NCBI GenBank assembly: GCA_005191425.1
Contig: SUPR01000005.1
Coordinates: forward strand, 1-32,000
Length of the DNA stretch: 32,000 bases
Origin: Candidatus Helarchaeota ASGARD archaeon Hel_GB_B
GTDB lineage: Archaea > Asgardarchaeota > Lokiarchaeia > Helarchaeales > HEL-GB-B
Direction: 5' to 3'
The first letter of the stretch is position 1. Every line of letters begins with the position of its first letter. A model generated the notes under the pieces. That model did not search any database and was not told where the DNA came from. It was given only the letters and a program-made list of their open reading frames with translations. Position numbers and translations under genes: made by a program. Shown in pieces: positions 149 through 17,091 of this stretch.

Positions 149-573
149 TTTTACCCTTGCTTAATTTTATTAATTTCAATATTGTCCAAAAAAACATCCT
201 ACTCTTTAATGAAATTCTTCAATTAAAAATTTAATGCTTATTCTTTATGAAAAATTGAATAAATGCCCTTTTAATTTGTTTTTGAAAACGATACAAAAAA
301 CCTTTAAAACGCTATGCACTCTTTATAGTATATATCGTATTCCTTTTTTAATATATTCATAAAAAACTATTTATAATTTCAATAAATATTATTCAGCCAA
401 TCATCAATTCTGTTTTGAGGATTTTTAGTTATTTAATAATAATGGATGAATTTTGTTCATAAGTATTAATAATCTTAAAAAATAATATATTTGTCAATAA
501 GAAATACAATAATCAATAAATTTAAATTCATCCCAATTTAATTTATTTCAATTGAAGGATATAAGAAAAATTA

Positions 574-681
574 GGGTTAGTAGCGCAGTATGGATAGCGC
601 GACGGACTTCTAATCCGTAGGTCGCAGGTTCAAAACCATAATCCGCCATGGGTTATAGGGAATATCCTGCCTAACCCGCCA
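574..681 (+). tRNA. tRNA-Arg(UCU) with a 30-nt T-loop intron (59/60) and encoded CCA
   Basis: Acceptor GGGTTAG(574-580)/CTAACCC(671-677), G73, CCA 679-681. D-arm GCGC/GCGC with A20. Anticodon arm ACGGA-CT-TCT-AA-TCCGT. T-stem GCAGG/CCTGC; removing 635-664 restores the TTCAAAT loop. Confidence 0.95.
635..664 (+). other. Non-canonical tRNA intron at 59/60 with a relaxed BHB motif
   Basis: Bulges A633-A635 and T663-T665 flank a 4-bp helix TTCA/GGAA that has one A.G pair, followed by an intron hairpin. Cleavage after the second bulge nucleotide gives exactly the mature T-loop. Confidence 0.88.
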
Positions 682-703
682 CTTTACTTACTTCTTAAAT
701 CAA

Positions 704-792
704 GGGCTCGTGGCCTAGTGGATATGGCACAAGCCTCCTAACTTTTATCTGGAGATAGCTTGTAGTCGTGGGTTCAAATCCCACCGAGCCCG
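704..792 (+). tRNA. tRNA-Arg(CCU) with a canonical 16-nt intron, no encoded CCA
   Basis: Acceptor GGGCTCG/CGAGCCC; anticodon stem CAAGC/GCTTG with CT-CCT-A; T-arm GTGGG-TTCAAAT-CCCAC. It lies 22 nt after tRNA-Arg(UCU), so it is likely co-transcribed. Confidence 0.95.
741..756 (+). other. Canonical 37/38 tRNA intron (BHB)
   Basis: CTCC(735-738) pairs with GGAG(751-754); bulges are TAA(739-741) and ATA(755-757). Confidence 0.92.
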
Positions 793-987
793 TATCACCT
801 ATATATTATCAAACTGACAAAATTCTTTTTGTTACATTAATATTTCTTCTTCAAAATTATTTTGTTTCGTAAATACAATTTTTATTTTTATTGATTGAAT
901 TTTTTGATCATATTTTTTCGATAGAAATAATTATATTCCCCAATTAAAAGTATCTTTCAATTATTTGAATATTTAAGTTCAAATGTA

Positions 988-1923
988 ATGATAAAAATGG
1001 ACAAATCAATATCGGAAAATAAGAATTTAGATAATATCAATATTACCCAAAAGACTAAGAGAATGGATTGGAGAATCGAGTTAATAAGAATACCCGCAAT
1101 ACTTGCTGTAGTCATAGTACATATGCAGTTAGAATCAGGTTGGATTAATGGTTCAACTATGCCACAAAATTTTATCTTATATATTGCTATGGCTATGTTC
1201 ATGTATGCTTCAGGATTTGTTCAGGGTTTGAAAAATGAGTTTAGTAATCCTGGAGATATAAATAAAAAGAGTTATTTTAAATATATCAAAAAGAGGTTTT
1301 TAAGATTATATATTGGTTATTATTTGGCTTTTGGTACTGTATTTTTGTCTCGATTATTTGCTTATTATATTATAAATAAGCCATTTCCACTAATATATTC
1401 CCCTTGGTCCCTATTTTTAGATTTGACCGGGACTTGGGGTTTATTTACCACATGTGGTTGCGGGGGTATTTGGCCTCCAGGGTGGTTTATATGTGCAATT
1501 TTTATGATATCATTAATTTATCCTTTTTTAAGAAGGCTGAGTTCTATTAATAAAATTTATATTTATGTGGTTATGGCAATCGCAATTGTGATGCGAATAA
1601 TCTTAGCAATTACATTATATAATCCAGCGTATTTCTTTCCCTTCTCTTGGATAACTGAATTTTCTATTGGAATGTTATTTGGGAAATGGTCTGGCTCAAC
1701 TGGGGGACCTCCAATCGTTTCAAAACGATATCAAAAAGTTGTAATCAAATTAGGGGCACGAGTCTGGCCAATGTACTTGTCTCATATAGTACCTATTGTA
1801 TGGATATCATATCTTGCAGGATTTTGGGAATTCTTTATAATATTCATAATTATTTTCCCATTGACAGAACTTTTTCATAGAATATTAATCATCATCAACA
1901 AAAAAATAAAGAAAAAAATTTAA
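988..1923 (+). CDS. Acyltransferase family 3 (OafA-like) integral membrane protein, AT3 domain only
   Basis: N-terminal RIELIRIPAILAVVIVH, FMYASGF, KKRFLRLY, GWFICAIF and YLSH motifs; about 9-10 hydrophobic segments. Confidence 0.85.
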   Translation: MIKMDKSISENKNLDNINITQKTKRMDWRIELIRIPAILAVVIVHMQLESGWINGSTMPQNFILYIAMAMFMYASGFVQGLKNEFSNPGDINKKSYFKYIKKRFLRLYIGYYLAFGTVFLSRLFAYYIINKPFPLIYSPWSLFLDLTGTWGLFTTCGCGGIWPPGWFICAIFMISLIYPFLRRLSSINKIYIYVVMAIAIVMRIILAITLYNPAYFFPFSWITEFSIGMLFGKWSGSTGGPPIVSKRYQKVVIKLGARVWPMYLSHIVPIVWISYLAGFWEFFIIFIIIFPLTELFHRILIIINKKIKKKI

Positions 1924-1960
1924 AACCTGTTATAAAAACATTGATTTAAAAGGTTTTGCA

Positions 1961-2864
1961 ATGTCAACCCTGCAAATTTTTAATAAAGAAACTAAAAAAG
2001 AAATTAAGAAAGATTGGCGAATAGAACTAGCTAGATTAATTTCTATTGTCATAATTATAATTTATCATATATTTATATTTACCAATTGGGTTGATATAAA
2101 TAATTGGTTCCAAACATGGCCCATTGTAGTAGCAATTGGTTGTTTTATGTATTGCTCGGGAAATGTCCATGGTCTTAAAAAAGAATTTAATGAACCAAGC
2201 TCATTATCTATTTCAAATTATTTAAATTTTGTAAAAAAAATTTATTCGATTATACTTCGAGTACTATCTTGAGTTATTCATAGTTTTTATTATAAAATAC
2301 ATTTGTGGAAAACTTCCTGTAATAACACCATTTTCTCTCTTTTTAGATTTAACAAGCCTATGGCCATTAATTACAGGAAATAGCGGCGGTATATGGCCTG
2401 AAGGCTGGTTTATTTGTGATATTTTCATATTATCATTAATTTATCCATTATTAAGACGTCTAAAAAAACAATACTTGAGCATTATAATTATTGTTGTACC
2501 TATTTTTCAAATTATGATTATGTTTTCACCATTTTATAAATTTGCATATTTTTTCTCTTTTTTCTGGACAACTGAATTTATTATTGGCATGCTTTTTGGA
2601 GATAATAGGTCTAAACGTATTGGAATACCAGTTGTCAATGGTCAGATTAAAAAAATAATTATAAAAATGGGTAATAGAGTATGGCCATTATATCTTGCAC
2701 ACATGGCTCTAATATCAATTCTACCTTTATTTACTCCATGGTGGATGTGTGTGTCGTTAATTCCTTTTATTCTCTTATTGACTGAAGGCTATTATCACTT
2801 ATTGAACAAAATTTATAATTTAATTGGATATGGCACTCTAAAAGCCCAAAAAAGACCAAACTAA
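1961..2864 (+). pseudogene. Second acyltransferase-3 paralog, frameshifted at an A8 tract (2233-2240)
   Basis: Track ORFs 1961..2272 and 2475..2864 are two halves of one gene. From 2241 the +1 frame is open (FIRLYFEYY...LFLDLTSLW...GGIWPEGWFIC) and aligns with the upstream paralog; removing one A gives about 300 aa. Confidence 0.85.
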
Positions 2865-3208
2865 CCATAAATAACAAAAATATATGATTTTGAATGGTCA
2901 TTGAGAAAAAAATAAAAGTATCTTATAATATTTTCACCTTGTTATAAAAACAATAATGATATACACTATAATTTTACCTAATTTTTAATTAATTATGTTT
3001 ATATTAAATTATTTTTAATTTTTTAATTATAAAATAAAAAAAGGTTATAGTTATCCCTACACAATTAGTTAAAAATATTTTAAAATTTAATCACTTAATA
3101 AATTTTAAATGCAATTTAATGAATTTTTTTAATGTTAAATATTTCTAATAATAAATCTAGTTAAAAAATATAAAACAAAATAAAAATAAACGATAGAAAG
3201 GGTCAATA

Positions 3209-5182
3209 ATGACTAATCCTATTGAAGAGTTAATTAAACAAATTGAAGATATAATTAAGAAATTTCTTGAAGACAAGGGAATATTAGAATATATAAGTGA
3301 TTTTGGGATAAAAGAATCGCCACAAACGAAGTTTGGCGATTATAATACAGCAATATGCTTTAGGATAGCAAAAATATTGAAGGAACAACCCAGAAATATA
3401 GCCGAGATGTTAATTGATTCTATTAATTTGAGAAATTATAATCTTATTAAAGAAGTTAAGAATGAAAATGGTTATGTGAATTTTTTTATCAATTATACTG
3501 AATTTAATTTTCTCGTTTTAAAAACTATTAATGAAATGGGTTCTAATTATGGTAGATTAGAGAATATTGATAAAGATAAAAAAATCTTGATTGAACATAC
3601 TTCTGTCAATCCTAACAAGCCATGGCACGTAGGGCATGCTAGAAACGCGATTTTAGGTGATACAATTGCAAGATTGTATAAGAAGGCTGGATATAATATA
3701 GAAGTTCAAAATTATATTGATGATACTGGAAAACAGGTCGCTGATACTTTATTTGCCATGGATTATTTTGGTTTTGATGGTTTACCTAATGATAAGAGAA
3801 TTGATCATTGGATGGGAAAAATATATGTGGATATTTATAAATTAATGGACGAGCTCCAATCAAAAATTAAAAAATCGAAAGAATTAGGAGAAAAAACAAC
3901 CAATTATGAAGATAAATTGAATGAAATTATTAATGGTATTGAAAATAAAATAAAATTAGTTGAAAAAGGGATATATAGAAATATTGTAGAGAAGTGTGTT
4001 AAGGATCAATTAAAAACTGCCTTTAAATTAAGAATTTTTTACGATCTACTCAGCTGGGAAAGCGATATTGTAAGAGCTGGACTTTTTAATGAATCTCTTA
4101 ATATTATTAAAAAAAGTAAATATGTTCAATATGTTGAGGAAGGAAAATTAAAAGGTTGTCTTACAATTCTTATTGATAAATATCTGGAAGATAACCCTAA
4201 TGATAAAGAAACTCGAAAATTATTTTATGGTATGTCTGAACCAAATAAAGTATTGCTAAGATCAGATGGCACTTCTACCTATGTAGCAAAGGACATCGCC
4301 TATCAGATGTGGAAATTTGGTCTATTAAAGAAAAACATGAAATATAAATTATTTATAAATCAACCAAATGGACAACAATTATGGACAACTGCTCCTGATG
4401 GAGAAACTAATGATAAATTTGGGCATGCTGATAAGATTATAAATGTAATTGGAATGGAACAAATGTATGAACAATCTTGTGTCGCTATTTCATTAAAAAT
4501 AATGGACTTTAATGAATATTATAAAAATTCATATCATCTAGGATATGCTCATGTTAAGCTAAAAGAAGGTAGAATGAGTGGTCGAAAAGGTATTTGGACT
4601 GCGACTGATGATATAATTAATGAAGCTATTTTAAGGGCTAAAAATGAAATAAAAAAAAGAAGAATTGATTTCCCTGAAGATAAACTCGAAAAGACGGCAG
4701 AATCCATAGGCATAAGTGCCATCCGATATGCTCTAATTAATCAAAATCCAACTAAAGAAATCATTTTTGATTGGGATACTGTTTTAAATTTTGATGGAGA
4801 TGCAGCCCCTTATTTACAATACGCTTATGCAAGAACTGCAGGAATCTTAAGAGAAGCTAAAAAGCGCAATATTTCATTTTCAAAAAAGAATTTAAAAACT
4901 GTATCTAAATTAATTACTCATGAAGAATTAATATTAATAAAAAATCTTGGTCTATATCCTCAAATTATTGAAAATTGTATAATAAACTATGATCCAAGTA
5001 TTCTTACTCAATTTACTTATAATTTAACACAAATTTTTAGCAGATTTTACACAAAGTGTCCTATTTTACCTACAAAGGATATCGAGCTAAGAGAAGCCAG
5101 ATTAATTTTGGTCGAATCATTTCAAACGGTATTAAAATCTATTTTTGATGTGCTAGGAATTGATATTTTAGAAAAAATGTAG
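3209..5182 (+). CDS. argS: Arginine--tRNA ligase
   Basis: FGDY and GYVNF in the N-terminal domain; EHTSVNPNKPWHVGHARN (HIGH), MSGRKG (KMSK-like), AIRY, FDGDAAPYLQYAYAR, and C-terminal M. Confidence 0.97.
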   Translation: MTNPIEELIKQIEDIIKKFLEDKGILEYISDFGIKESPQTKFGDYNTAICFRIAKILKEQPRNIAEMLIDSINLRNYNLIKEVKNENGYVNFFINYTEFNFLVLKTINEMGSNYGRLENIDKDKKILIEHTSVNPNKPWHVGHARNAILGDTIARLYKKAGYNIEVQNYIDDTGKQVADTLFAMDYFGFDGLPNDKRIDHWMGKIYVDIYKLMDELQSKIKKSKELGEKTTNYEDKLNEIINGIENKIKLVEKGIYRNIVEKCVKDQLKTAFKLRIFYDLLSWESDIVRAGLFNESLNIIKKSKYVQYVEEGKLKGCLTILIDKYLEDNPNDKETRKLFYGMSEPNKVLLRSDGTSTYVAKDIAYQMWKFGLLKKNMKYKLFINQPNGQQLWTTAPDGETNDKFGHADKIINVIGMEQMYEQSCVAISLKIMDFNEYYKNSYHLGYAHVKLKEGRMSGRKGIWTATDDIINEAILRAKNEIKKRRIDFPEDKLEKTAESIGISAIRYALINQNPTKEIIFDWDTVLNFDGDAAPYLQYAYARTAGILREAKKRNISFSKKNLKTVSKLITHEELILIKNLGLYPQIIENCIINYDPSILTQFTYNLTQIFSRFYTKCPILPTKDIELREARLILVESFQTVLKSIFDVLGIDILEKM

Positions 5183-5252
5183 ATTTAATATAAATAACAA
5201 TTAATATTTGAATTTATACACTATTTATTATTTATAAACCTTAAATCCCAGA

Positions 5253-5260
5253 TTTTTTTT
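5253..5260 (+). terminator. Possible oligo(dT) archaeal terminator after argS
   Basis: T8 run about 70 nt after the stop, preceded by CCCAGA. Similar C-rich plus T7 runs follow other genes here, but AT-richness weakens the evidence. Confidence 0.35.
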
Positions 5261-5483
5261 ATTAAAATCATTAGATGTCCCCATAATTTCCTTAATGGTG
5301 GGGTTTACCCGTTATATTTACATAAATTTTTTGTAAAAATTTCTACTTTTTCAGTTTTTTATAATTAGAAAAAATATTTGACTTGAGATCATTTAAAATT
5401 GTAAAATGATTAGATTTATAAATAAGAATTGAGAAAAAAGAAAATGGTGGACCTGGCAGGACTTGAACCTGCAATCGCTGGCT

Positions 5484-5513
5484 TACTTCCTTATATTTTT
5501 TTATATTATTAGT
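5484..5513 (-). other. Canonical 37/38 intron (30 nt, AT-rich) of tRNA-Arg(UCG)
   Basis: CUUC (32-35) pairs with intron GAAG; bulges GG|A and UA|A give the correct junctions. Confidence 0.9.
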
Positions 5514-5530
5514 CCGAAGGCCAGTGCCTT

Positions 5531-5553
5531 CTATGGATAGCTTTTAAGCCACA
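5531..5553 (-). other. Non-canonical D-loop intron (23 nt, about 20a/21) of tRNA-Arg(UCG)
   Basis: Central helix AUGG/CCAU, bulges AU|U and AG|A, outer intron helix GUGGCU/AGCUAU with a UAAA loop. Confidence 0.85.
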
Positions 5554-5897
5554 ATCCATTGGGCCACAGGTCCTCTAAATCTTTAGATAGGTAATATTCA
5601 GTTAATAAATAAACAAATTATAGTTTTTAAATGTTTTCAATATATAGATAAATATTATTTATGGTAATTTATTTTAGACAATCAATTTTATCTTTAATTA
5701 TTTGAACATTAATTTAATAAAGAGCTAAATGAGATTTACCTTACATTACTATTTTTTCTAAAAATTACAAATGACCGATATTTTGTTATAAAAAAAACAC
5801 AATTTTGATAAGTTATTTATATTATATTTCTATTAAAATTTAAAAGTTTATGATATTTAAAATGTACAAAGAAAAATAGAGAACGAAGGTCTAGTTT

Positions 5898-6188
5898 ATG
5901 AGCGAAAAGTCATATAGAGCATATTTATTAATAAGATTAGCAAGTGTTGGTAAAGAATGGATAGTAATTGATAAAATAAAAGAATTAAAATCTTCAAAAG
6001 GTAATTGGGTAATAACATATGCTTCTCCTGTCTATGGAGCATGGGATGCAATAGCTGAAATCTCCTTTAAAGAATTATCTGATCTTGACGAAATAGTAAC
6101 TGCATCAAGAACTGTGGAAACATTACGTGATGTTATTACAGAAACTACAACAGTTGTTTGCACAAAAAAAGATTATCCATGGGAATAA
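5898..6188 (+). CDS. Stand-alone Lrp/AsnC ligand-binding (RAM) domain protein
   Basis: 96 aa with the beta-alpha-beta pattern AYLLI...VYGAWDAIAEI...ELSDLDEIV...ITETTT; no N-terminal HTH. Confidence 0.8.
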   Translation: MSEKSYRAYLLIRLASVGKEWIVIDKIKELKSSKGNWVITYASPVYGAWDAIAEISFKELSDLDEIVTASRTVETLRDVITETTTVVCTKKDYPWE

Positions 6189-6380: not shown

Positions 6381-7682
6381 ATGCTTGGTCCATCGGAAAT
6401 TAATTATAAAGATTTGGAATCTCCATTTTGGACAAAATATCATACCTTTTTAGTATGGACTCTGTCAATAAATAGATTTTTTAATCTTTTTATGATTGTA
6501 TTTACTGGGTTATCAATTAGACAAATAGCCAACGCGATTAATGTAAATTCAATTACAATGATTATCATTTTTGCAATAATGAATTTAGGGAGTGGACTGG
6601 CTTTATTTTTAAGGTATATTGCGGACATTATAGGTCGAAAAAAGACTTTTATAGTAATGCACATTGGACTGATGATGGCATATGGAATTTCAGCGATGGC
6701 GACTAATGTATTGTTTTTTATCATATCAAGGTTGGCTGTAGGAATTTTTTCAATGAATGTTAGTGGACTTATTATAACTGAAGAAGTACCTGCAAAATAT
6801 AGGGGGCGAGCTATCGGACTTACAGAAGGAATTGGAATGACTTCTTCAATTCTGGCTTCTTATTTGGCAGTTTTTTTAGAGATTAATTTGGACTATTGGC
6901 GCGAAATTTTCTGGCTTATGGCTATTATAGGAATAATAATTCAAACAATATTTGCCATATTTATCAAAGAAACAAGACGATACAAATATTTTCTTAAAAA
7001 TAATAATAACCGCAGTTTTAAACAAGCATTTTTTGGAGTTTTCAAGAGAAAATATCTTAAATTTATGATTTTAAGTATTTCATTATTTTTTTGTATTAAT
7101 GGAGTATATCAAACAATAAAGCGGTATTATCCCGCATTTTTGATTGAAGAACGCGGATTTCTTGGTTTTAATACAGAAATTGTTGGTTATTGGTCAATTT
7201 TTTTATATATTAGTTCTATAATTGGATATAGTTTATGCGGCTTTATTTCCGATCATATTGGTAGAAAAAAGACGATCTCTATTTCTGCAGCTTCTTATTT
7301 TCTTGGAAGTTTATTTGTATTAGTTTTTTATAATATGTATATAATTTTTATTGGCTTTATTATAATCAATTTTTGTTTTGCGATATTCATAAATACTGCT
7401 TCTGTTCTTACTGTAGAATATTTCTCCACTGAAGATAGAAGTATCGGGTCTGGGTGGAACTCTACCATTATTAATTTTTTATCTATATTTGGAAATTTTA
7501 GTATTTTTTTAGTCGCAGATCCATATCTAGGGCTAGGATTGGGGTGGGGAAATTCATTTCTATTATTTGGGTCGATTTATATCATTGGAGTTATTATTAT
7601 CCCGCAATTCTTTATGGAGACAAAAAGTCGCGTAATAGAAGAGATTTATATACAAGATATCGAAAGAAATATAGAAATTTAA
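6381..7682 (+). CDS. Major facilitator superfamily transporter
   Basis: About 12 TM segments; motif A twice (ADIIGRKK, SDHIGRKK); EEVPAKYRG, EYFSTEDRS and C-terminal METK signatures. Confidence 0.92.
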   Translation: MLGPSEINYKDLESPFWTKYHTFLVWTLSINRFFNLFMIVFTGLSIRQIANAINVNSITMIIIFAIMNLGSGLALFLRYIADIIGRKKTFIVMHIGLMMAYGISAMATNVLFFIISRLAVGIFSMNVSGLIITEEVPAKYRGRAIGLTEGIGMTSSILASYLAVFLEINLDYWREIFWLMAIIGIIIQTIFAIFIKETRRYKYFLKNNNNRSFKQAFFGVFKRKYLKFMILSISLFFCINGVYQTIKRYYPAFLIEERGFLGFNTEIVGYWSIFLYISSIIGYSLCGFISDHIGRKKTISISAASYFLGSLFVLVFYNMYIIFIGFIIINFCFAIFINTASVLTVEYFSTEDRSIGSGWNSTIINFLSIFGNFSIFLVADPYLGLGLGWGNSFLLFGSIYIIGVIIIPQFFMETKSRVIEEIYIQDIERNIEI

Positions 7683-9579: not shown

Positions 9580-10902
9580 CTATTCTAGGGCCAACTTAGC
9601 CAGAATTTCTGAACAGATCGCGATATAACCCCACTGACCGGCTACATAAGAACCATATTCTAATTCAAATTTCTCATAATTATTTATTATCATTGTATAA
9701 TAAAACCAAGATCCATTATGTGCTTGTAATGAATATGCCATTGAATATACTCCTATGTCCGATCCGCCTTTATATGAAACTACCGACCAAGCATTAGGAT
9801 CGGCGAGTCCTGGGTTCAAATGAGTCGAAGTATAATTTTTTGTTTTATTTTGGATTGAATATATATCTGTACAGTTGAATGTCCACTCAATTTTGCTCCT
9901 ATTTTCGATATTATGAGTAAAATTCACTGAATTTAAGTCTATGTCAAATACATTTAATAAAGAAATATTATTTTCTAAATAATTATATTTCTCTGTTGTA
10001 TTCATCTCAAGATATTTTGTCAAATCTTGGTCATTTAACAGCCATCTTAATTTAAATGATTCAGCTGTTGTTAAAAGCGGTTTTGGATAATTTTTAGGAA
10101 TAAAATTCTCAATATAACTTCGGTTTAAGTAATGAATTAAATGATCTGCGGCAGTATTATCACTTATATTTATCATATAATTGGCTAAATCACGAAGTGT
10201 TAAAAGAGTACCGTTGTTTTTTTGATAAAGTATTCCTGATGGTAAGGATTTATATTTATCTAAAATCGGTATTTTAGTTTCCCAAGTTATTTTTTGGTCG
10301 TTTTTAATTTTATTTACAAGAGCTTCAAGGACATATAATTTAAATGTAGATGCTACTTGCATTTTTTGTCCTGTATTAAATTGATAAATAGTATGGTTAT
10401 CTCGCATAATTAATAACGATTTATTTCCAGGCAAATTTTGAAATTCTGAATATATTGTGGACCAATTTTGGCTTAAAAGATAAGAATTATAGTATTTCAT
10501 CATTCCAATAAAAAATGAATTTACTAAAAGAGTTACATAATTTAATGCAATAGTCCCTGTAGTCCATGCATGTTCTAAATAAAGTGTATATGTATATAAC
10601 CCATATATATTAGGTCTAGAAGATATAGATACATTATCAAATGCGCCATAATACTTTGTAATTTCATTAACAATATAAAACATATAATCTAACGATACAG
10701 CATCTGTAAAAGATTGATCAAATATTCCTCCTAAATCATCCACACTATTTGCGTTAAAAATTCTTTGAATATCCGTTTTCAGAATCTGTGCATTTCTATT
10801 TTGCAAATTAATTATATACTGCGAAATAATAAGGGGAATTAAAATAATTGAGAAAATTACGCATCCTATTATTATTCCAATAATAATTTTCTGCTTTTTC
10901 AT
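9580..10902 (-). CDS. Membrane-anchored serine hydrolase of class A beta-lactamase fold (ORF12/LpqF-like), with an extra N-terminal domain
   Basis: N-terminal basic plus hydrophobic anchor; SxxK (ASTFK), SDN (ISDNTAAD), PLLTT.E.FKL, and KGG at the KTG position. Confidence 0.85.
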   Translation of the reverse strand: MKKQKIIIGIIIGCVIFSIILIPLIISQYIINLQNRNAQILKTDIQRIFNANSVDDLGGIFDQSFTDAVSLDYMFYIVNEITKYYGAFDNVSISSRPNIYGLYTYTLYLEHAWTTGTIALNYVTLLVNSFFIGMMKYYNSYLLSQNWSTIYSEFQNLPGNKSLLIMRDNHTIYQFNTGQKMQVASTFKLYVLEALVNKIKNDQKITWETKIPILDKYKSLPSGILYQKNNGTLLTLRDLANYMINISDNTAADHLIHYLNRSYIENFIPKNYPKPLLTTAESFKLRWLLNDQDLTKYLEMNTTEKYNYLENNISLLNVFDIDLNSVNFTHNIENRSKIEWTFNCTDIYSIQNKTKNYTSTHLNPGLADPNAWSVVSYKGGSDIGVYSMAYSLQAHNGSWFYYTMIINNYEKFELEYGSYVAGQWGYIAICSEILAKLALE

Positions 10903-14005: not shown

Positions 14006-14896
14006 ATGAAGTTTAAATTAGAAGGAAATATACCTGCATTAATAACACCTATGAAAAAAAATTTAGAAATAGACTTCGATGCGCTAAGGAGATTCGTAGA
14101 TTTCCAAATTGAAAATGGCGTAGATGCTGTATTACCATGTGGTACTACTGGAGAATCGGCTACAATGAGTCACCAAGAGCATAAGAAGGTAATTGAAACA
14201 GTAATAGACGAAGTTAATGGAAGAATCCCTGTTCTTGCAGGTACTGGCTCAAATTCAACTAAAGAAGCAATTGACTTAACAAAATATGCAGAAGATGTTG
14301 GAGCTGATGCATGTCTTTTAATTTGTCCTTATTATAATAAACCGACACAAAGAGGTCTTATAAATCATTTTAAAATCGTAGCAGAATCTACTAATCTTCC
14401 GGTAGTATTATATAATGTTCCATCTCGTACCGGTAGAAACATTGAAGCTGAAACTACAATTGAATTATCAAAAATTCCGAACATTATTGGAATTAAAGAA
14501 GCCAGCGGAAATTTAGCACAAATAATGAAAATAATCAAAAACACTGAAAATTTCTCGGTTATTTCTGGGGACGATTCTCTAACGTATACAATATATATGT
14601 TGGGTGGAACTGGTGTTATCAGTGTTGCGACTAATATAGTCCCAAGATTAATGAGTGATTTTATTAAAAATTTACGATCTGAAAATTATAAAGATGCGCG
14701 GTCTTATCATTATAAATTATTGGATTTATTTAATGTTTTATTCATTGAAACTAATCCCGGGCCAGTAAAAGAGGCTGCATCATTATTCAAAATTGCTGGA
14801 ATTTCCAACTGGTTTCTTAGACCACCATTAATCAATCCAACACCTGAAAATTCTAAAAAAATCAAGGAAACAATTGATGCCTTAAAGGTTTTTTAA
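14006..14896 (+). CDS. dapA: 4-hydroxy-tetrahydrodipicolinate synthase
   Basis: PALITP, GTTGES, PYYNKP, YNVPSRTG, and IKEASG (Schiff-base Lys). Confidence 0.96.
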   Translation: MKFKLEGNIPALITPMKKNLEIDFDALRRFVDFQIENGVDAVLPCGTTGESATMSHQEHKKVIETVIDEVNGRIPVLAGTGSNSTKEAIDLTKYAEDVGADACLLICPYYNKPTQRGLINHFKIVAESTNLPVVLYNVPSRTGRNIEAETTIELSKIPNIIGIKEASGNLAQIMKIIKNTENFSVISGDDSLTYTIYMLGGTGVISVATNIVPRLMSDFIKNLRSENYKDARSYHYKLLDLFNVLFIETNPGPVKEAASLFKIAGISNWFLRPPLINPTPENSKKIKETIDALKVF

Positions 14897-14914
14897 TTTA
14901 TTAGGGTGAATTAA

Positions 14915-15742
14915 ATGGTAATAAAAGTAGTCGTTTCTGGTGCAGACGGAAATATGGGCTCACTGGTCGTAAAAAATATTATTAAAGATCCTGAAACAGA
15001 ATTATGTGGTGGAATTACAATAAAAGACTCCCCAAATCTTGATAAAGATATTGGATTAGTAGTCGGTCTTGAAAAATGTGGGATTACTTTAGTAGATAAT
15101 ACTGACATTGACTCTTATTTAAAAAATATCAAGCCAGATGTATATGTAGATTTTACAATTGCTTCAGCTGTTAAACAGAATATTAAACATGTTCTTAATA
15201 ACAAAATAAACTTTATTATAGGGACTACTGGGTTAGACCAAGAATTATTAGATTTTATAAATAAACAAGTTAAAATTCAGAATTTAAGTGGTGTAATCTC
15301 TCCAAACATGGCCGTCGGAGTTAATGTCTTCTTCAAAATGGCTCAAATTCTGACTAATTATTTAAAAGGATTTGATATTGAGATTATTGAAGCCCACCAT
15401 AATAGAAAGAGAGATGCACCAAGTGGTACTGCTTTAAAAGTTGCTAATTTAATTGCAGAAGAATTAGACAAAGATTTAAATAAAATTGGCAAGTTTGGTA
15501 GAAAAAGAGGTCCCGAAAAAAGAGTCCCAGGTGAAATTGGTATACATGCAATAAGAGCAGGCGATATAGTTGGCGAACACATGTTATTATTTGCTGGCCC
15601 TGGTGAAAGAATCGAATTAATTCATAGAGCTCATAGCAGACAATGTTTTGCCGAAGGTACTATAAAAGCTATTAAATTCATTTATAATAACAAAAATACT
15701 GGAAAAATTTTTGATATGTTCGATGTACTTGGCTTAAAATAA
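14915..15742 (+). CDS. dapB: 4-hydroxy-tetrahydrodipicolinate reductase
   Basis: GADGNMG, DFT, IGTTG, EAHHNRKRDAPSGTA, RAGDIVGEH and FAEG. Confidence 0.97.
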   Translation: MVIKVVVSGADGNMGSLVVKNIIKDPETELCGGITIKDSPNLDKDIGLVVGLEKCGITLVDNTDIDSYLKNIKPDVYVDFTIASAVKQNIKHVLNNKINFIIGTTGLDQELLDFINKQVKIQNLSGVISPNMAVGVNVFFKMAQILTNYLKGFDIEIIEAHHNRKRDAPSGTALKVANLIAEELDKDLNKIGKFGRKRGPEKRVPGEIGIHAIRAGDIVGEHMLLFAGPGERIELIHRAHSRQCFAEGTIKAIKFIYNNKNTGKIFDMFDVLGLK

Positions 15743-15780
15743 CTATCTTTTTTTTAAAATAAATTAATTAAGGGTTAAAT

Positions 15781-17091
15781 ATGGATTTTTTGGAAAATAA
15801 AGGGTTATCTATCAAAGATAATTTATTGTATATAGGTAATTGGAGCTGTTCAGATTTAGTTAATAAATTTAATACACCGATTTATGTTATCAATGAAAAA
15901 ATTATAGTTAATAGATATCAAACGCTTTATAATACTTTAAAAAAATATTATGATAAAATCAGAATTCACTATGCTGTAAAAGCTAACACTAATATGGCTA
16001 TATTAAAAATATTAAAAAACTTAGGATCTTATTTGGATTGCGTTAGTCCAGGAGAAATATACATCGCCAAAAATGTAGGTTTTAAACCTGAAAAAATATT
16101 ATACACTGGAAATAATTATACTAATGACGAGTTAAAATTTGCTTTAGATAATAAGGTAATGTTAAATTTAGACGCGATATCTCAAATAGACCGATTAATA
16201 TCTACAATTAATAAGGGAAAATTCTCTAATAACAGACCATTGATTTCTTTTAGAGTAAACCCTGAGTTTGGGGGCGGTCATCATGACCATGTCATCACAG
16301 CTGGTCCTAATGTAAAATTTGGAATACTTGAGCGCGATATTATTAGTGCATATAAAAAAGCAATTGACATGGGCTTTACAAAATTTGGAATACACATGCA
16401 CATTGGATCTGGAATTCTGGACGTAGCTATCTTTAAAATTGCTGCAGAAAAATTTTTTAAGATAATTGAATTAATTAAAGCAAATTTGGATATTAATTTC
16501 GATTTTATTGATTTAGGTGGTGGTCTCGGTATTCCATATAATCCAGCAGAGGAACCCCTTGATTTAGATCGATATGCAAAAACCATAATTGAAATTTTCA
16601 AGACATATAATGAAAAATGTTCTTTAGAGAACCCATATTTCTGTATTGAACCAGGTCGGTTTATCGTTGCCGAATCTTGTATTATATTATCAAAAGTTAA
16701 CACAATTAAAAAAATGCGAGATCAGAACTATGCTGGGATCGATGCTGGATTAAATCTATTGATTAGACCATCGCTTTATGGATCTTATCATCATGTAGTT
16801 GTCGCAAATAAAATGGACCAAACTTCAAAAGAAATATATAATATCGCTGGCCCAATTTGTGAATCCGGCGACATATTAGCAAGAAACAGGTCTCTTCCAT
16901 CTATTGAAGAAGGTGATATTATTGCAATTTTAGATGCTGGTGCCTATGGCTTTACAATGAGCTCAAATTATAATATGCGTCCTCGTCCAGCTGAAATTTT
17001 AATCAATGGTAATAAGATAAATATCGTCCGTGAAAAAGAAAGTTTTAAGGATTTAATCACAAAACAGAGAATTCCTGATTATTTACAATGA
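15781..17091 (+). CDS. lysA: Diaminopimelate decarboxylase
   Basis: TPIYV, YAVKAN (PLP Lys), KFG, HMHIGS, DLGGG, EPGR, GPICESGD, GAYG..M.SNYN.RPRPAE. Confidence 0.97.
   Translation: MDFLENKGLSIKDNLLYIGNWSCSDLVNKFNTPIYVINEKIIVNRYQTLYNTLKKYYDKIRIHYAVKANTNMAILKILKNLGSYLDCVSPGEIYIAKNVGFKPEKILYTGNNYTNDELKFALDNKVMLNLDAISQIDRLISTINKGKFSNNRPLISFRVNPEFGGGHHDHVITAGPNVKFGILERDIISAYKKAIDMGFTKFGIHMHIGSGILDVAIFKIAAEKFFKIIELIKANLDINFDFIDLGGGLGIPYNPAEEPLDLDRYAKTIIEIFKTYNEKCSLENPYFCIEPGRFIVAESCIILSKVNTIKKMRDQNYAGIDAGLNLLIRPSLYGSYHHVVVANKMDQTSKEIYNIAGPICESGDILARNRSLPSIEEGDIIAILDAGAYGFTMSSNYNMRPRPAEILINGNKINIVREKESFKDLITKQRIPDYLQ

Follow-up and report, generated by a model that had tools for sequence, protein, structure and literature searches.

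Genes for aminoacyl-tRNA synthetases and for tRNAs are normally scattered through a genome, and the balance between an enzyme and its tRNAs is thought to be set in trans. Neighborhoods of a synthetase with its cognate tRNA are known, as in pylT-pylS, where the synthetase gene is kept beside its cognate tRNA gene and has moved between genomes as a unit, in that case as an orthogonal pair for a nonstandard amino acid encoded in an operon. In Escherichia coli, the mixed tRNA-protein operon thrU-tyrU-glyT-thrT-tufB co-transcribes noncognate tRNAs with a protein gene. Here we analyze a 32,000-nt window of a Helarchaeales (Asgard) genome, labeled G000, in which three tRNA-Arg genes surround argS, the gene for arginine–tRNA ligase (ArgRS). 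Like pylT-pylS, this block combines a synthetase with cognate tRNA, but the enzyme is a standard ArgRS and several isoacceptors are present in separate units. Like the tufB operon, it links tRNAs to a translation gene, whereas its tRNAs are cognate and are not co-transcribed.

Intron-rich Asgard tRNA genes have already been described: they are heavily interrupted by multiple and noncanonical bulge-helix-bulge (BHB) introns (bioRxiv 10.64898/2026.10.13.758758). All three tRNA genes of the block are of this kind; the text of that preprint makes no mention of synthetases or gene linkage, and a literature search on synthetase/cognate-tRNA gene linkage returned no paper describing argS/tRNA-Arg linkage. 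We find that the block belongs to an argS/tRNA-Arg neighborhood that recurs among archaea, here in a form specific to its lineage. Its tRNA-Arg(UCG) gene lies 262 nt beyond the argS stop (161 nt in the sister species, G001), is kept among relatives, and is unmatched at the loci of glutamyl- and alanyl-tRNA synthetase (GluRS and AlaRS).

Three tRNA-Arg Genes Surround the Sole argS Gene

A sequence-only reading of the window had placed tRNA-Arg(UCU) and tRNA-Arg(CCU) in tandem upstream of argS and tRNA-Arg(UCG) convergent downstream, all with introns and with A20, and this description is correct in every detail (Table 1; coordinates are positions in the window). We called tRNAs with Rfam, ARAGORN, and two purpose-written intron-tolerant cloverleaf finders, together with hand reading of the sequence. 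Rfam matched all three genes (574–645(+), 704–792(+), and 5448–5557(−)), with RF00005 scores of 39.6, 58.2, and 30.7 bits for UCU, CCU, and UCG, respectively (cutoff 29); ARAGORN found one of the three (CCU at 704–792), with its isotype unnamed. The spliced tRNAs have complete stems and the anticodons as named. A BHB intron was defined by a 4-bp helix between two 3-nt bulges, a supporting outer/inner helix, and restoration of the cloverleaf on removal. All four introns pass the finder’s BHB score and their excision gives back canonical loops; with helices read by hand, the BHB helix of the UCU intron forms three of its four pairs. A20 is an identity element of tRNA-Arg for ArgRS. The D-loops of all three tRNAs read ..GGATA, giving G18 G19 A20, and GGATA is present in 7/7 mature tRNA-Arg sequences compared (from G000, G001, and G004, another member of the order).

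The ArgRS itself scores 622 bits against NCBIfam NF002447 (cutoff 460, E 8.6e-187) and contains all expected domains (PF03485, N-terminal tRNA-binding; PF00750, catalytic core; PF05746, DALR anticodon-binding), with a HIGH-type motif, HVGH at 140–143, that is invariant in the alignment. It is the sole argS match of the 3.54-Mb assembly, and the nearest named ArgRS, 74% identical, is from “Candidatus Helarchaeota archaeon.” Between them the three tRNAs read AGA, AGG, and CGA, plus CGG by wobble, codons that make up ~87% of those for Arg in long reading frames. Genes for tRNA-Arg(GCG) and tRNA-Arg(CCG) were not found in the 94%-complete assembly by BLAST with the genes of relatives, by searching for the anticodon-loop motif, or by a cross-genome DNA search, and may be missing from the assembly or hidden.

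The UCU and CCU genes are separated by a 22-nt spacer and are probably transcribed as a single precursor. From the CCU gene to argS there are 2416 nt, including two genes and a 345-nt AT-rich spacer directly before argS. Because UCG is convergent, because the two genes and the spacer separate the pair from argS, and because the pair is flipped in G001, the block has no shared transcript and is not an operon; judged from sequence, it appears to comprise at least three transcription units (the UCU-CCU pair, argS, and the convergent UCG). Of the two explanations offered by the sequence-only reading, co-regulation is thus not supported here in the form of a shared transcript. The layout is not an assembly artifact, because the argS/tRNA arrangement is repeated on a metagenome contig of independent origin (L037, 98.8% identical). 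This contig reaches 5.3 kb further upstream, into methylmalonyl-CoA mutase genes, and adds no more tRNAs; neither the window nor these 5.3 kb hold further translation genes.

Table 1. Features of the window, with the argS block first
Feature	Position	Strand	Remarks
tRNA-Arg(UCU)	574–681	+	CCA encoded; 30-nt BHB intron 635–664, T-loop, site 59/60
tRNA-Arg(CCU)	704–792	+	without encoded CCA; 16-nt intron 741–756, canonical 37/38 site
Acyl_transf_3 membrane acyltransferase gene	988–1923	+	PF01757, E 1.9e-17
Second acyltransferase paralog, broken in assembly	1961–2864	+	frame change near A-run 2238–2245, in-frame stops
argS, arginine–tRNA ligase, 657 aa	3209–5182	+	NF002447 match
tRNA-Arg(UCG)	5445–5573	−	CCA encoded; 23-nt D-loop intron 5531–5553; 30-nt 37/38 intron 5484–5513
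Imperfect AT-rich inverted repeats	475–526 / 841–896		flank the UCU-CCU pair
DNA methyltransferase gene (N6_N4_Mtase), 587 aa	7737–9500		adjoins MFS transporter gene
dapA, dapB, and decarboxylase gene	14006–17091		in a row

tRNA-Arg Genes Recur Beside argS Across Archaeal Lineages

We surveyed 80 diverse archaeal argS loci and 40 more chosen by family across the Asgard phylum. A tRNA-Arg gene lies ≤1 kb from argS in 21 of 133 distinct loci, and within that distance we count 25 tRNA-Arg genes against 3 other tRNAs, 2 of which are doubtful. The view of the sequence-only reading that archaea do not usually cluster a synthetase with its tRNAs holds for synthetases generally, but these 21 argS loci show such clustering. 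Adjacency spans six Asgard families as well as one Woesearchaeota and one Altiarchaeota genome (Table 2). Spacing between tRNA and argS is conserved inside families: the upstream same-strand CCG gene stands 46–104 nt from the argS frame in f11 and f22 and 234–774 nt from it in f16, and the divergent UCG gene of f15 stands 14–132 nt from argS. At the single Undinarchaeales locus sampled (L103), no tRNA was found in 8 kb upstream; the downstream flank there ends after 174 nt.

Table 2. Arrangement of argS and adjacent tRNA-Arg genes (anticodons given; arrowheads show orientation). Family codes are genome-search labels, and names come from the titles of matching contig records
Group	Layout	Members with layout
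f11	CCG> argS>	4/4 sampled
f22 (Jord-/Freyarchaeia)	CCG> argS> <GCG (GCG in 5)	6/6
f16 (Atabeyarchaeia, LC30)	CCG> argS> UCG>	3/3
f15	<UCG argS>, divergent	6/6
f13	GCG> argS> <CCG	1/1
Woesearchaeota genome	UCG> argS> <GCG	single locus
Altiarchaeota genome	argS> UCU>	single locus

As in the window, a CGN-decoding tRNA-Arg gene stands near argS in other Asgard families (Jord-/Freyarchaeia, Atabeyarchaeia, f11, f13, and f15), there at 4–350 nt, and the convergent downstream position of the window’s UCG gene is also occupied by a CGN tRNA in Jord-/Freyarchaeia (GCG), f13 (CCG), and the Woesearchaeota genome (GCG). In the other Asgard families, however, argS has the tRNA as its immediate neighbor, often an upstream gene of the same strand, whereas the upstream partners in the window are the AGR-decoding UCU-CCU pair, 2.4 kb away with unrelated genes between. 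The firm and well-supported part of the block is the adjacent CGN-type tRNA, UCG in this window; the UCU-CCU pair could be a coincidence. On a quick IQ-TREE tree of 59 ArgRS sequences, the adjacency trait changes at least five times, and f16, f11, and f22 form one well-supported clade.

The excess of Arg among tRNAs ≤1 kb from argS is significant at the gene level (P = 1.9e-21, binomial test) and when counted once per lineage (P about 1e-5); the gene-level value overstates the case because it treats related genomes as if they were independent. Within this one genome, two independent tRNA-Arg loci would fall ≤2.5 kb from argS by chance with a probability of about 2–4e-5, or about 5–8e-4 allowing for 20 synthetases. 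Twenty Asgard genomes from the survey, of which 14 have argS adjacency, served as controls. Their GluRS loci have no tRNA nearby, and 14 AlaRS loci from the set have a few tRNAs and no tRNA-Ala, so the enrichment is specific to argS. The sequence-only reading had also proposed checking the other synthetase genes of this genome. We located 18 with eight Pfam models and scanned 7 kb on each side with the finder and Rfam, and no cognate tRNA lies within about 7 kb of any of them; the one tRNA called by the finder is tRNA-Ile(GAU), which lies 4 kb from a class II gene of the Asp/Asn/Lys type. Rfam at its gathering threshold missed a known intron-bearing tRNA-Ile (L054), and its blank result at 16 synthetase loci is weak evidence. 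Overall, we are confident that the adjacency of argS and tRNA-Arg is real and nonrandom.

Conservation and Divergence Among Close Relatives

Synteny in relatives was another check proposed from the sequence alone. Adjacency recurs in the distant archaeal groups above, and the block is kept in G001, the only other species of the genus (ArgRS 73% identical), where it is colinear. The UCU and CCU genes of G001 are 24 nt apart and inverted in place as a pair relative to argS (574–792 in the window versus 6733–6917 of G001 locus L031), the UCG gene has two introns, and behind it stands a fourth gene, tRNA-Arg(CCG). The pair is 2.4 kb from argS in G000 and 5.5 kb in G001, which has about 2.7 kb of additional DNA ahead of argS. 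Imperfect AT-rich inverted repeats flank the pair in both species and may be due to chance, given a genome G+C content of 28%. The G001 UCU gene is intronless and the T-loop intron is found only in its G000 ortholog, so either a gain or a loss of this intron took place inside a single genus. Orthologous tRNA-Arg genes are 80–86% identical and UCU and CCU only 58%; UCU and CCU are therefore old isoacceptors, which rules out recent tandem duplication.

In the order’s other two families, G004 carries a tRNA-Arg(GCG) gene 6.1 kb upstream of argS; around the argS of G003, G005, and G006 no tRNA was seen over about 5–9 kb, the span depending on the contig end; and argS was not found in G002 (82% complete). 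The best DNA matches to the tRNA-Arg genes in other Helarchaeales lie on contigs other than the argS contig, in what is a noisy search. The ArgRS of the genus is about 40% identical to that of other families in the order, as distant as it is from Thermococcus, while in the same genomes AlaRS is 54–58% and GluRS mostly 53–55% identical. This disparity hints at gene replacement. In the sister order, Lokiarchaeales, ArgRS is of a different, shorter type (about 575 aa) and very distant.

Proposed Selection for Physical Linkage and Its Alternatives

Our best explanation, held with about even confidence and drawn from gene position, is a physical linkage under selection, with co-inheritance or co-dosage of the enzyme and its tRNAs as the benefit. 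With all of them within a few kilobases, ArgRS and tRNAs could be passed on, replaced, or swapped together as a matched set, and proximity could keep them at equal gene dosage and in a shared chromosomal neighborhood. Because orientation varies between families, what is maintained seems to be proximity as such, and this favors a unit of co-inheritance or exchange, or an effect of dosage or neighborhood, over a shared transcript. ArgRS is among the few synthetases that need bound tRNA even for amino-acid activation, so the ratio of ArgRS to tRNA may matter more than usual. The earlier suggestion of a block kept by selection fits the conservation in the sister species, the recurrence in several archaeal lineages, and the absence of such linkage at GluRS and AlaRS loci; the mechanism is one we infer.

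Exchange as a unit is the direction in which three observations lean: conflict between the ArgRS tree and organism labels, the low ArgRS identity on a long stem, and direct repeats in an Atabeyarchaeum genome. At that locus (L121), the flanking tRNA-Arg(CCG) (7576–7666) and tRNA-Arg(UCG) (9853–9943) differ at 1/91 bases, 13-nt intron included, and the only difference is the first anticodon base. Such near-identity suggests a recent duplication or gene conversion, and direct repeats of this kind could loop argS out as a cassette. A bolder reading would make the adjacency a selected, repeatedly evolved archaeal module that reflects functional cis coupling peculiar to ArgRS and serves also as the unit of argS exchange between lineages. 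Here the enzyme might, for example, assemble at the locus with tRNA just transcribed there, or ArgRS might feed back on the neighboring tRNA genes or on its own mRNA. We consider this reading unlikely.

Several observations weigh against selected linkage. Adjacency is absent from the sampled Thorarchaeota, Heimdall-type families, Hadarchaeota, Thermococci, and most Micrarchaeota, and from three of the four other Helarchaeales genomes with argS, and in 20 genomes of Lokiarchaeales argS has no tRNA of any kind closer than 8 kb; with so many lineages lacking it, the linkage is dispensable. Both orientation and partner isoacceptor vary by family, so no single cis mechanism fits all families. Beyond 1 kb from argS the excess of Arg disappears (5 Arg vs. 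16 non-Arg tRNAs), and by our estimate about 0.5 chance cases like the UCU-CCU pair at 2.4 kb are expected over 133 genomes, which leaves the pair not significant. Flanking genes are also colinear between the two species, so the conservation seen within the genus does not exceed what synteny in general shows at that divergence. GluRS also needs tRNA for activation yet is unlinked, which weakens the activation rationale, and the long ArgRS branch may reflect fast evolution. Finally, our intron-tolerant finder recovered ~30 of roughly 46 tRNAs expected in the genome (ARAGORN, about 14 real tRNAs), and it may have overlooked non-Arg tRNAs close to argS or cognate tRNAs close to other synthetases.

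Some of these points are what a neutral history predicts, in which chance rearrangement brought the genes together, they have not yet separated, and recurrence goes back to a small number of ancient accidents passed down to many genomes. Synteny alone would then account for conservation within the genus, and the many lineages without linkage and the differing distance of the UCU-CCU pair from argS in the two species agree with this account. We nevertheless hold it unlikely, as the trait shows at least five independent state changes with differing layouts, the tRNAs beside argS are almost all Arg with GluRS and AlaRS controls empty, and adjacency is fully retained within five families. Spacing that is conserved inside families would suit cis-regulatory coupling, in which neighboring tRNA genes act on argS expression: a same-strand upstream tRNA as a co-transcribed, processed leader (CCG in f11, f22, and f16), a divergent tRNA through a shared promoter region (UCG in f15), or a convergent tRNA by ending or blocking the argS transcript. 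ArgRS might in addition bind nascent tRNA and so feed back on its own synthesis. A processed leader is a live alternative where CCG ends so closely before argS in f11 and f22. It is not applicable to this window, whose sole close tRNA is convergent and whose upstream pair is far off, behind two genes, and inverted in G001. Nor is any known leader, T-box, or tRNA mimic present at 300–6000, where an Rfam scan with E up to 1 returned only tRNAs and an antisense artifact, although an undescribed leader element may exist. We hold cis-regulatory coupling distinctly unlikely.

Two further alternatives would bring the block in from outside. The genus may have gained argS and its flanking tRNA-Arg genes as a cassette by horizontal transfer, replacing the native copy. 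Consistent with this, a long stem separates its ArgRS from other Helarchaeales, with the identity deficit relative to AlaRS and GluRS noted above; the ArgRS tree places a Woesearchaeota sequence inside an Asgard clade and a Hodarchaeaceae sequence inside Hadarchaeota; and near-identical tRNAs stand as direct repeats around argS in Atabeyarchaeum. The long branch and the odd amino-acid composition flagged by the tree tool could come from fast evolution, no donor was identified, the contig holds no partial tRNA copies or att-like repeats, and the base composition of the block is the same as that of the rest of the window, all of which makes acquisition as a cassette improbable. tRNA-Arg genes are frequent integration sites, and the block might instead be an integrated mobile element with a tRNA-Arg gene as its attachment site. 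The DNA methyltransferase gene downstream and the extra DNA before argS in G001 would fit such an element, but there is no duplicated tRNA fragment on the contig and no integrase domain in the neighboring genes scanned, and argS is the sole copy and essential; we regard integration as extremely improbable.

Taken by itself, the window gives a modest result, a real, genus-conserved cluster without signs of an operon. Across several archaeal phyla, an Arg-specific linkage with differing layouts and full retention within families suggests that gene position matters for inheritance, exchange, or expression. It provides a concrete test case for how matched synthetase/tRNA sets stay together through frequent synthetase gene replacement, as well as a practical marker, since hidden intron-rich tRNA-Arg genes can be found beside argS.

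Neighboring Genes and Other tRNA Clusters

The first acyltransferase gene between the UCU-CCU pair and argS is a passenger with no translation role. The sequence-only reading suggested a later insertion of the two acyltransferase genes, which are found in both species of the genus. The second paralog, which in G001 occupies one frame and reads through, is either a pseudogene or a consensus error in this assembly: compared with contig L037, it has 2 bases fewer after the A-run and G-to-A changes that create in-frame stops. A subthreshold Rfam match to the bacterial antisense RNA HPnc0260 (5345–5483(+)) falls on the opposite strand of the 3′ half of tRNA-Arg(UCG), and we take it as an artifact antisense to that gene.

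Positions 1–5325 of contig L037 connect the beginnings of contigs C96 and C139 in the G000 assembly. The ~4 kb between them, missing from the assembly, encode the large and B12-binding subunits of methylmalonyl-CoA mutase and a helix-turn-helix regulator. Downstream of the block, the DNA methyltransferase has a weak match to an anti-phage-associated DUF1156 protein, and its gene adjoins one for a major facilitator superfamily (MFS) transporter. Farther on, dapA, dapB, and a gene for a pyridoxal phosphate-dependent Orn/DAP/Arg decarboxylase probably make up the end of lysine synthesis; we saw no link between this row and the argS block. Other tRNA genes of the genome cluster too, on contigs C165, C98, and C46, and most of them carry one to three introns; on C165, for instance, the run Gly(UCC)-Gly(GCC)-Val(GAC) fits into 400 nt.

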